64,000 nucleotides of DNA from an uncultured Chloroflexia bacterium (GTDB taxonomy: Bacteria > Chloroflexota > Limnocylindria > Limnocylindrales > CSP1-4). The notes beneath the pieces were generated by a model. That model saw only the letters and a program-made list of their open reading frames with translations. It was not told where the DNA came from and did not search any database. The stretch is taken from positions 92,938 to 156,937 of the forward strand of contig CAVVCZ010000007.1 in assembly GCA_963746845.1 (NCBI GenBank), in the 5' to 3' direction. Below, piece after piece: positions 1,668 to 2,438 of the stretch (its first letter is position 1; each line of letters begins with the position of its first letter). Made by a program: the position numbers and the translations under genes.

Positions 1668-2438
1668 ATGCGCGACCAGCTGTCGCTGCCGCTGGAGCCC
1701 GACGTCCAGCCGCTGCCGAACCTTCCCGACGGGCTGCGGCCGATGCTCCCCCGGATGATCGCCGAGCCCTTCGACTCCGCGGTCCACCTGTTCGAGCCGG
1801 CCTGGGGCGGGACCCGGGCGCTGGCGTTCATCGGGCCGGCCGAGGACCCGGGCGCCGGCGAGGTCCGGATCCTCGACGGCGAGGGTCGCGACCTGGGCCC
1901 CGCCCTGCCGGAGCTCGCGGGGATGGCGGTGCGCGTCGACGCGCGGTCCGCGGTGCTCGACGGGGAGCTCGTTGCGGTCGACGAGGCGGGCCGCGCGGAC
2001 CCGGCCGAGCTGGCACGCCGGATCGGCGGAGGCGCCGGCCGGCCGGTGGCGTTCCTGGCATTCGACCTCCTCCACATCGATGGGCGGTCGCTGCTCTCGA
2101 CGCCGCTCCACAAGCGACGCAACCTCCTGCGCCGGATCCTGCACCCGGGCGACGAGGTCCTCGCGGTGCCCGCGATCGCCACCGAGGGCCGGGCCCTCCA
2201 CGCCGCGGCCGCGGCGCAGGGGATCGCCGGGGTGATGGCGCGCCAACGGACGAGCCCGTACCTCCCGGGCACGATCTCGCGGCTGTGGCGGTTCATCGCA
2301 ACGGAGCCCAACCCGACCCCGGCGGCCGCGGCGAACCCGGATCTGGGCCTGGGGCTGGAGCTGACCGAGCCGAGCGCGACGGCCGCGGCCCCGGTGGTCG
2401 CCTTGATCCGGAGACTCCCCCTGCTCTTCGACGAGTAG
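1668..2438 (+). CDS. ATP-dependent DNA ligase adenylation-domain homolog (LigD/LigC-like), catalytic residues substituted, no OB domain
   Basis: PML..EPFDS..FEPAWGGTRAL (motif I KxDG lost), VLDGELV (III), FLAFDLL (IIIa), AGVMARQRTSPYLPG (IV), WRFIA (V). Confidence 0.85.
   Translation: MRDQLSLPLEPDVQPLPNLPDGLRPMLPRMIAEPFDSAVHLFEPAWGGTRALAFIGPAEDPGAGEVRILDGEGRDLGPALPELAGMAVRVDARSAVLDGELVAVDEAGRADPAELARRIGGGAGRPVAFLAFDLLHIDGRSLLSTPLHKRRNLLRRILHPGDEVLAVPAIATEGRALHAAAAAQGIAGVMARQRTSPYLPGTISRLWRFIATEPNPTPAAAANPDLGLGLELTEPSATAAAPVVALIRRLPLLFDE

Follow-up and report, generated by a model that had tools for sequence, protein, structure and literature searches.

A conserved, catalytically dead relative of bacterial end-joining ligases with a putative clamp-binding N-terminus in the Limnocylindria

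The DNA analyzed here, referred to as the window, is a stretch of 64,000 nucleotides from the genome of an uncultured bacterium of the Limnocylindrales (Limnocylindria, Chloroflexota). It contains a gene at 1668-2438 on the plus strand, stop codon included, that has an ATG start and encodes a protein of 256 aa, here called the pseudo-ligase. Judged from its sequence, the protein is a catalytically dead relative of the bacterial end-joining ligase that is conserved under purifying selection. We propose, with a probability of about 0.5, that the pseudo-ligase is a non-catalytic accessory of end joining, its N-terminus being tethered to the sliding clamp, DnaN, and its C-terminal tail to a partner in the pathway, and that it acts as either an adaptor or a decoy. 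All of the evidence is computational and the source organisms are uncultured.

An earlier note on this DNA had proposed a pseudo-ligase adaptor that docks on the clamp and binds nicked DNA or nucleotide. The conservation of the protein, the loss of catalytic residues and the modelled clamp docking support the first part of that proposal; nucleotide binding is unlikely to be a conserved function. On the best reading, the pseudo-ligase further belongs to the Ku/LigD end-joining system, a point absent from the note.

Lost catalytic motifs in a conserved adenylation fold

The only significant Pfam match of the pseudo-ligase was to PF01068 (E = 1e-14, residues 66-207), and the Pfam scan returned no match to PF04679, the oligonucleotide-binding (OB) domain. 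The top NCBIfam models were LigD and TIGR02779 (NHEJ_ligase_lig), with a score of 101.6 bits against a cut-off of 227.75. The nearest solved relative was the ligase domain of LigD from Mycobacterium tuberculosis (1vs0, 6nhx, 6nhz; E = 3e-17). In the alignment with this domain, EGKWDG of LigD is matched by EPAWGG, the remnant of motif I (ExKxDG; 1794-1811, plus strand), in which the nucleophile lysine is replaced by A45 (codon GCC, 1800-1802) and the aspartate by G47. Similarly, EGVIAK of LigD pairs with AGVMAR, the remnant of motif IV (EGxxxK; 2226-2243, plus strand), a change also seen in nearly all of the 120 closest homologs described below. Alignments to active relatives and homologs placed WRFIA opposite WLKxK in the remnant of motif V (LWRFIA; 2283-2300, plus strand). 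Motif III (VLDGE) and motif IIIa (FDLL) were retained. The sole lysine of the protein, K149, is not conserved, and no alignment column contained lysine in at least 80% of the closest homologs. The earlier note had described a ligase scaffold with changed catalytic residues, flanked by an N-terminus reading MRDQLSLPL and a C-terminus reading RRLPLLFDE; each of these sequence details was found. Without the lysine nucleophile, the OB domain and the residues of motifs I, IV and V that bind metal and phosphate, the pseudo-ligase is predicted to seal no DNA.

An AlphaFold2 (AF2) model built with a 43-row alignment had a predicted local distance difference test (pLDDT) score of 86.7 and a predicted template modelling (pTM) score of 0.83. 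Residues 21-212 formed a confident alpha/beta domain with pLDDT above 90. Based on PF01068, AF2 and Foldseek, this segment (1728-2303, plus strand) is an adenylation, or nucleotidyltransferase (NTase), domain of the ATP-dependent-ligase type whose catalytic residues are lost; the top Foldseek matches were archaeal ATP-dependent ligases and the M. tuberculosis LigD ligase domain (E about 1e-14). Residues 1-20 were modelled with low confidence (block means of 53 and 65), residues 218-235 had pLDDT below 50, and a helix at 240-249 lay in a block of mean pLDDT about 81. The disordered linker after the domain (residues 213-239; 2304-2384, plus strand) varies in length and sequence. The absence of an OB domain, as described in the note, is thus apparent both from the Pfam scan and from the model, which past residue 212 consists of the disordered linker and one helix. 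The protein thus amounts to a single dead NTase domain flanked on either side by a short motif on a tether. No fused form with an informative extra domain was found among the longer representatives P0139, P0165, P0135, P0145, P0143, P0122 and P0127; P0139 bears a GidA fragment and is probably a chimera.

Homologs were collected using a word-indexed search in which 8000 candidates were scored and 2822 proteins matched at E ≤ 1e-3. The best 120 of these, the closest homologs, were 222-269 aa long with 72-100% identity, and their database names were LigD, ATP-dependent DNA ligase, or hypothetical protein of Candidatus Limnocylindrales. None had lysine at the nucleophile position, which was occupied by alanine in 77, serine in 41, and tryptophan and threonine in one each; all 120 had glycine at the position of the motif I aspartate. 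In motif IV, alanine replaced the glutamate in 117 and arginine the lysine in all 120, and phenylalanine stood for the first lysine of motif V in 117. The terminal motifs were equally well conserved, with QL.L.L inside the first 12 residues of 120/120 and RLP[LF] inside the last 12 of 119/120. On the strength of this conservation, the terminal motifs are more than chance.

A broader comparison was based on an exhaustive search of 1.84 billion representatives, which yielded 9911 matches at E ≤ 1e-3 and 53 at E ≤ 1e-30. The query and the best 150 matches were aligned; 19 of the 151 rows are fragments that leave out motif I. The 58 rows bearing the motif I lysine, of median length 324.5 aa, contained no strict N-terminal QLxLxL, three instances of the looser pattern and no tail. 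The corresponding counts for the 74 Lys-less rows were 28, 35 and 22, and many of the Lys-less rows without the motifs are fragments or come from other lineages. Loss of KxDG thus co-occurred with the strict QLxLxL, an association that the earlier note had raised.

Selection was evaluated in 30 orthologous loci using the ratio of nonsynonymous to synonymous substitution rates (dN/dS). The closest pair had a dN/dS of 0.19. Median pairwise values were about 1.1 in the linker (pN/pS of 1.0), as compared to 0.37 in the domain and 0.21 in the tail; all of these values are rough because synonymous sites were near saturation (pS about 0.5). No frame disruption was seen in the 30 loci read. Strong orthologs (≥286 bits) of subtype 1a, the subtype of the window, were present in 35 of the 45 genomes of the same family (Limnocylindria, Chloroflexota). 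Class-wide tallies, here and below, cover 151 genomes, of which seven were flagged as unpublished and contributed no sequence; related genomes are non-independent samples. The 31 named loci were mostly labelled Limnocylindrales, Limnocylindria or Chloroflexota/Chloroflexi, with minority labels of Verrucomicrobiia (2), Anaerolineaceae (2), Methylomirabilota (1) and Thermomicrobiales (1).

These data bear on the trivial explanation that the gene is a pseudogene in decay, or that it was wrongly annotated in a GC-rich genome. All of the catalytic motifs are indeed degraded, and this GC-rich DNA contains many spurious open frames. However, full-length homologs are numerous, gene order is conserved across the 31 named loci, the domain and tail have dN/dS values below 1, against about 1 for the linker, and the AF2 fold is confident. 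We rejected this explanation on the conservation data and consider it extremely improbable. That the protein is not a product of mere decay, as the note's proposal required, follows from the lack of a motif I lysine in any of the closest homologs together with the dN/dS of the closest pair.

The conserved residues of the domain suggested a further alternative. Subtype 1a keeps the adenosine-contact residues R50 (119/120), E100 (120/120) and the phenylalanine of FDLL, and R192 stands in place of the motif IV lysine. The protein might thus be a residual enzyme or a small-molecule sensor that binds ATP, AMP or NAD non-covalently, or that employs another nucleophile, to act on DNA ends or to signal the energy state. 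Nevertheless, no lysine is conserved, the conserved H40 and H136 also occur in active relatives, and the metal-binding aspartate and glutamate of motifs I and IV are gone. Moreover, a sister subtype, 1b, has lost both E100 and the stacking phenylalanine of motif IIIa. We therefore regard nucleotide binding as unlikely to be the common function of the two subtypes, and a residual enzyme or sensor as improbable overall.

Two terminal motifs and the sliding clamp

The pseudo-ligase starts with a disordered tag, MRDQLSLPLEP (1668-1700, plus strand), that contains the putative beta-clamp-binding hexapeptide QLSLPL at 1677-1694. The hexapeptide corresponds to residues 4-9, which had pLDDT values of 53-65 in the AF2 model and thus form an exposed, flexible segment. 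In a looser pattern, the N-terminal motif was found in 30/30 orthologous loci. QLSLPL is the N-terminal clamp-binding hexapeptide of Escherichia coli Hda, and in both proteins the identical sequence is at the extreme N-terminus. In contrast to Hda, the pseudo-ligase lacks an AAA+ domain and is unrelated to the regulation of DnaA, so that the likeness is limited to the motif; an Hda-like regulator was rejected on the same ground, PF01068 being the sole significant Pfam match. In E. coli epsilon, QLSLPL has served as a strengthened motif for clamp binding (PMC3664792). In the window's genome, DinB carries RDQLALFD and an ImuB-like protein QQLPLF; the lineage therefore uses classical clamp-binding motifs.

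To model the complex, two copies of DnaN from the same genome (371 aa, 32-row alignment) were combined with residues 1-30 of the pseudo-ligase. The ipSAE score was 0.63 (0.62, 0.63 and 0.64 in the individual runs), as compared to 0.00 for the best of three controls. Of 80 solved complexes, 58 attained this ipSAE mark, as did 2 of 110 mismatched pairs. The three runs had at least 98% of their contacts in common, with partner pLDDT of at least 50. In the model, residues 2-12 of the pseudo-ligase contact DnaN residues 154, 171-176, 241, 243-248, 279, 281, 323, 347, 349, 363 and 365-369, which we take to be the canonical peptide pocket between DnaN domains II and III. The model thus supports the predicted docking of the N-terminus in the DnaN pocket that the note had envisaged. 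Separately, DnaN homologs in the metagenomic set were 92-97% identical to the DnaN of the window's genome, as compared to 72-88% for pseudo-ligase homologs; the pseudo-ligase therefore evolves much faster than its proposed partner.

The clamp-like motif is not confined to dead proteins. Among database proteins that are stand-alone ligase domains of non-homologous end joining (NHEJ), P0197 and P0245 look active and start with DQLQIEL or DQLSIEL, P0197 having the former. These sequences suggest that a clamp-type motif exists also on working ligases of the clade. As a feature of the pseudo-ligase, the motif is conserved as the note implied; as a feature peculiar to it, the motif is shared with at least one active relative, P0197.

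It is conceivable, though rather unlikely, that the clamp resemblance is coincidental and that the pseudo-ligase is an end-joining scaffold or regulator whose QLxLxL-like motif binds Ku, LigD or another partner. The active relatives within the class carry a related, non-canonical motif, [HQR]P[TI]L[LI][DE]V, suggesting an older function of the segment, and relatives are linked to ku operons. Against coincidence, the dead subtypes converge on the canonical hexapeptide (120/120), DinB of the same genome has an identical RDQL.L prefix, and the model docks the motif in the canonical pocket whereas controls scored 0.00.

Other proteins of the genome end in clamp-like sequences. In a scan for such termini, two of the four frames checked were without a Pfam family and are probably spurious. 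An Ogt-like protein resembling O6-methylguanine methyltransferase (PF01035; C4:1168022-1168666, minus strand) ends in TQLALFG, a possible clamp-binding motif, and a clamp-like terminus was also seen on a DNA methylase frame. At C6:308704-313979 (minus strand), the gene for the ImuB-like protein (weak IMS match, QQLPLF) adjoins a gene for a DnaE2-like polymerase, an arrangement that looks like an imuB-dnaE2 mutagenesis cassette.

The other end of the pseudo-ligase carries the conserved tail APVVALIRRLPLLFDE (2385-2435, plus strand), found in 119/120 of the close homologs. Its consensus is [RA]P.L.[LV][IL].[RS]LP[LF] followed by acidic residues, and with a dN/dS of 0.21 it is the most strongly constrained segment of the protein across the 30 loci. 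Homologous tails occur on active ligases encoded in ku operons; the tail therefore predates the loss of catalysis. On these alignments, it is a second, older motif shared with active ligases, a relationship absent from the earlier note. The C-terminal pattern RLP[LFM] was found in four frames of the window's genome, and the full tail motif in the pseudo-ligase gene alone. Accordingly, the tail is expected either to bind a partner of its own, and not a hub protein like DnaN or SSB, or to pack on the domain of the same protein. From gene linkage, Ku and LigD would be the obvious candidate partners.

The domain itself may have kept part of a Ku-binding surface. In M. tuberculosis, residues D522, K579 and L580 of the LigD ligase domain are contacted by the C-terminus of Ku, and the substitution L580E weakens binding (PMC13717202). 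In our alignment, L580 corresponds to L153 of the pseudo-ligase, which lies in a conserved RRxLL helix, and D522 corresponds to an alanine. Retention of the surface that receives the Ku arm is therefore plausible from sequence.

Relatives in ku operons and the locus of the pseudo-ligase

The window's genome (3.56 Mb, 12 contigs) encodes three active-looking ATP-dependent ligases, including a LigD of PE-LIG-POL architecture, and its ku gene precedes ligD by 34 nt in the same orientation. Elsewhere in the class, active stand-alone ligases of about 350 aa, here termed LigX, have KWDG, EG..AK and extra C-terminal sequence at the place of the OB domain. Their genes stand directly after ku and face ligD in 4/4 loci (G013, G052, G031, G076). 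Active ku-operon ligases have tails of the type RPRL[VIM][VL]LxSLPF and N-termini reading [HQR]P[TI]L[LI][DE]V or similar.

Subtype 1b is also dead, having FEPWWPG in motif I, DGT for DGE, SDLL for FDLL, and SAR. Its N-termini include NQLPLSI, EQLDLSI and DQLSLPLE, its tail reads LALIQRLPL, and its gene is directly after ku in 3/3 loci of family f4. In the window's own family, one genome was read from each of three genera lacking a strong subtype 1a match. In G038, which belongs to this family, subtype 1b lies between ku and ligD; it is also present in G068 and G131. The Ku-less genomes G107 and G023 contained no member of subtype 1a or 1b. Similarly, no dead type 1 member was found in five fully listed genomes of families f3 and f5, in which the active form is present.

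Ku was found in 141 of the 151 class genomes; the ten without it are six genomes of 1.0-1.4 Mb from family f2 together with G107, G023, G035 and G046. None of these ten had a family-strength match: the best was 1.7e-25 or weaker in nine, and in G107 it was an ordinary active ligase. The pseudo-ligase family thus co-occurs with Ku across the class, with the proviso that related genomes are non-independent.

Comparison of the pseudo-ligase with LigX (e.g., L084:3840-4907, P0197) reveals a common N-terminal segment before LPxxLxPM and a common tail, RPxLxxLxxLP[LF], and subtype 1b occupies the position of LigX after ku. LigX differs in being active-looking (KWDG, EG..AK, WLKxK) and in having an OB domain; indeed, P0197 contains PF04679 and scores 237 bits with TIGR02779, above the cut-off. 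P0162 combines traits of both, being a Lys-less protein of 362 aa with both terminal motifs and extra sequence at the place of the OB domain, in which Pfam calls no OB domain. In a tree of the domain, LigX grouped with the two dead subtypes and with a second dead family, on weak support. Overall, the best reading of these sequences is that the pseudo-ligase arose from a stand-alone ligase of end joining whose gene immediately followed ku.

The second dead family consists of ligase-like proteins of about 190-230 aa that have [IL]EPxWxGxR for KxDG, end near DDWLVIEKL and carry neither terminal motif. It is represented in the window's genome (C2:144209-144463, minus strand), at loci L103-L106, L108, L124 and L127, and in other families of the class. 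The ESM Atlas further contains clusters of proteins of about 200-210 aa with the ligase adenylation domain alone, most commonly in Pseudomonadota.

The stop-to-stop frame of the pseudo-ligase gene is 262 aa, with just six in-frame codons upstream of the ATG. A likely -10 box, TACCAT (1653-1658, plus strand), is found 9 nt before the ATG and may serve as its promoter element; in most of the 30 orthologous loci, inspected by eye and uncounted, a TAnnnT box stands roughly 5-10 nt before the start. A box so near the ATG implies a leaderless or nearly leaderless mRNA, which fixes the start codon and places the motif at the true N-terminus. On the minus strand, TAGACT (1648-1643) precedes by 10 nt the GTG at 1632 of a divergent gene for an S9 peptidase. 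The region 1630-1670 thus contains two back-to-back -10-like boxes, and either gene seems to be transcribed with little or no leader; AGTCTA is found again at many of the orthologous loci.

The neighbors in the window are the S9 peptidase with PD40 repeats (1-1632, minus strand), an ABC-2 permease and ATPase (2518-4883, minus strand) and a polyphosphate kinase (6110-8449, plus strand). The order of the subtype 1a locus, with the S9 peptidase divergent from and the ABC transporter convergent with the pseudo-ligase, is kept in most of the 31 named loci, and the S9 peptidase adjoins the pseudo-ligase gene in 27 of them. Five soil-metagenome DNA runs contain small shares of the sequence.

This stable locus away from ku (Ku within 4 kb in 0/31 loci) and its own conserved -10 box, together with the clamp-like N-terminus and the complex model, would fit an alternative close to the note's reading, in which the pseudo-ligase is a clamp-docked factor of replication or nick processing that has no role in end joining and whose dead domain recognizes nicks or adenylated nicks, for example at Okazaki junctions. 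On the other side, the sister subtype and the active relatives sit in ku operons, the family went undetected in all 10 Ku-less genomes, subtype 1b lacks the nucleotide-contact residues E100 and F131, and the protein has no OB domain that could assist in clasping a nick. We consider such a factor unlikely, and slightly more so than a scaffold with a coincidental clamp resemblance.

A proposed role in end joining

In the mechanism that we favor, the pseudo-ligase would be an end-joining accessory that has kept the adenylation fold and, having lost catalysis, seals no DNA. Its N-terminal DQLSLxL is predicted to dock in the peptide pocket of DnaN. Its C-terminal [RA]PxLALIxRLP[LF] tail would bind a dedicated partner, most plausibly Ku or LigD, or else its own domain. 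As a clamp-tethered adaptor, the protein would bring end-joining proteins to clamp-marked DNA; as a decoy, it would occupy Ku without ligation. In both versions, the protein would adjust end joining with respect to replication.

Several points weigh against this proposal. Ku was not found within 4 kb of any of the 31 subtype 1a loci, the neighboring S9 peptidase and ABC transporter are uninformative as to function, and a search for RNA data on the gene gave none. Because many clamp-peptide complexes have been solved, the score of the clamp model may reflect likeness only and not binding. The six active ku-operon ligases from within the class have a degenerate N-terminal motif, e.g., HPTLLEV, and the clamp link may therefore not be general to the clade. 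The tail helix, modelled with a block pLDDT of about 81, could pack on the pseudo-ligase's own domain. Finally, the domain tree did not join subtypes 1a and 1b, and instead paired 1a with the second dead family at 95/87. This pairing may be due to long-branch attraction; in an approximately unbiased (AU) test, a single clade of the two dead subtypes was not rejected (p = 0.235), nor was it thereby shown.

The accessory role can be compared with known systems. The pseudo-ligase and the M. tuberculosis LigD ligase domain have in common the adenylation fold, motifs III and IIIa, and the RRxLL helix. The pseudo-ligase differs in lacking the nucleophile lysine, the glutamate and lysine of motif IV, the lysines of motif V, and the OB domain, and in having two putative terminal docking motifs that are not in LigD. 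In logic, it resembles ImuB, a clamp-binding polymerase of the Y family that has lost catalysis: each would use a repair-enzyme fold without catalysis as a clamp-bound adaptor. The folds and pathways differ, with a ligase NTase domain and end joining in one case and a polymerase and translesion synthesis in the other. Eukaryotic NHEJ includes the non-catalytic factors XLF, PAXX and APLF, which have tethered, terminal Ku-binding motifs. The resemblance to these would hold only if the tail of the pseudo-ligase binds Ku, and there is no homology.

Bacterial NHEJ is usually described as consisting of Ku and LigD only. In a literature search of partial coverage, mostly without subscription journals, we found no description of a Lys-less ligase-domain protein in bacterial NHEJ or of a clamp-binding motif on an ATP-dependent NHEJ-type ligase. 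On the best reading, what is new here is a pseudo-enzyme adaptor built on the ligase NTase fold and derived from the end-joining pathway's own ligase.

If the proposed role is correct, the pseudo-ligase would provide an entry point into the coordination of bacterial end joining with replication, and would add a ligase-fold case to the few known instances of a dead repair enzyme turned into a clamp adaptor. A bolder possibility, which we put forward tentatively and regard as doubtful, is that end joining in this lineage is a three-part system in which the dead ligase, through its two tethered motifs, physically links Ku/LigD to the replicative clamp. In that event, the pseudo-ligase would set the site or timing of break joining, for example by keeping end joining away from replication forks rich in clamps, and would be a bacterial counterpart of the non-catalytic scaffolds of eukaryotic NHEJ.

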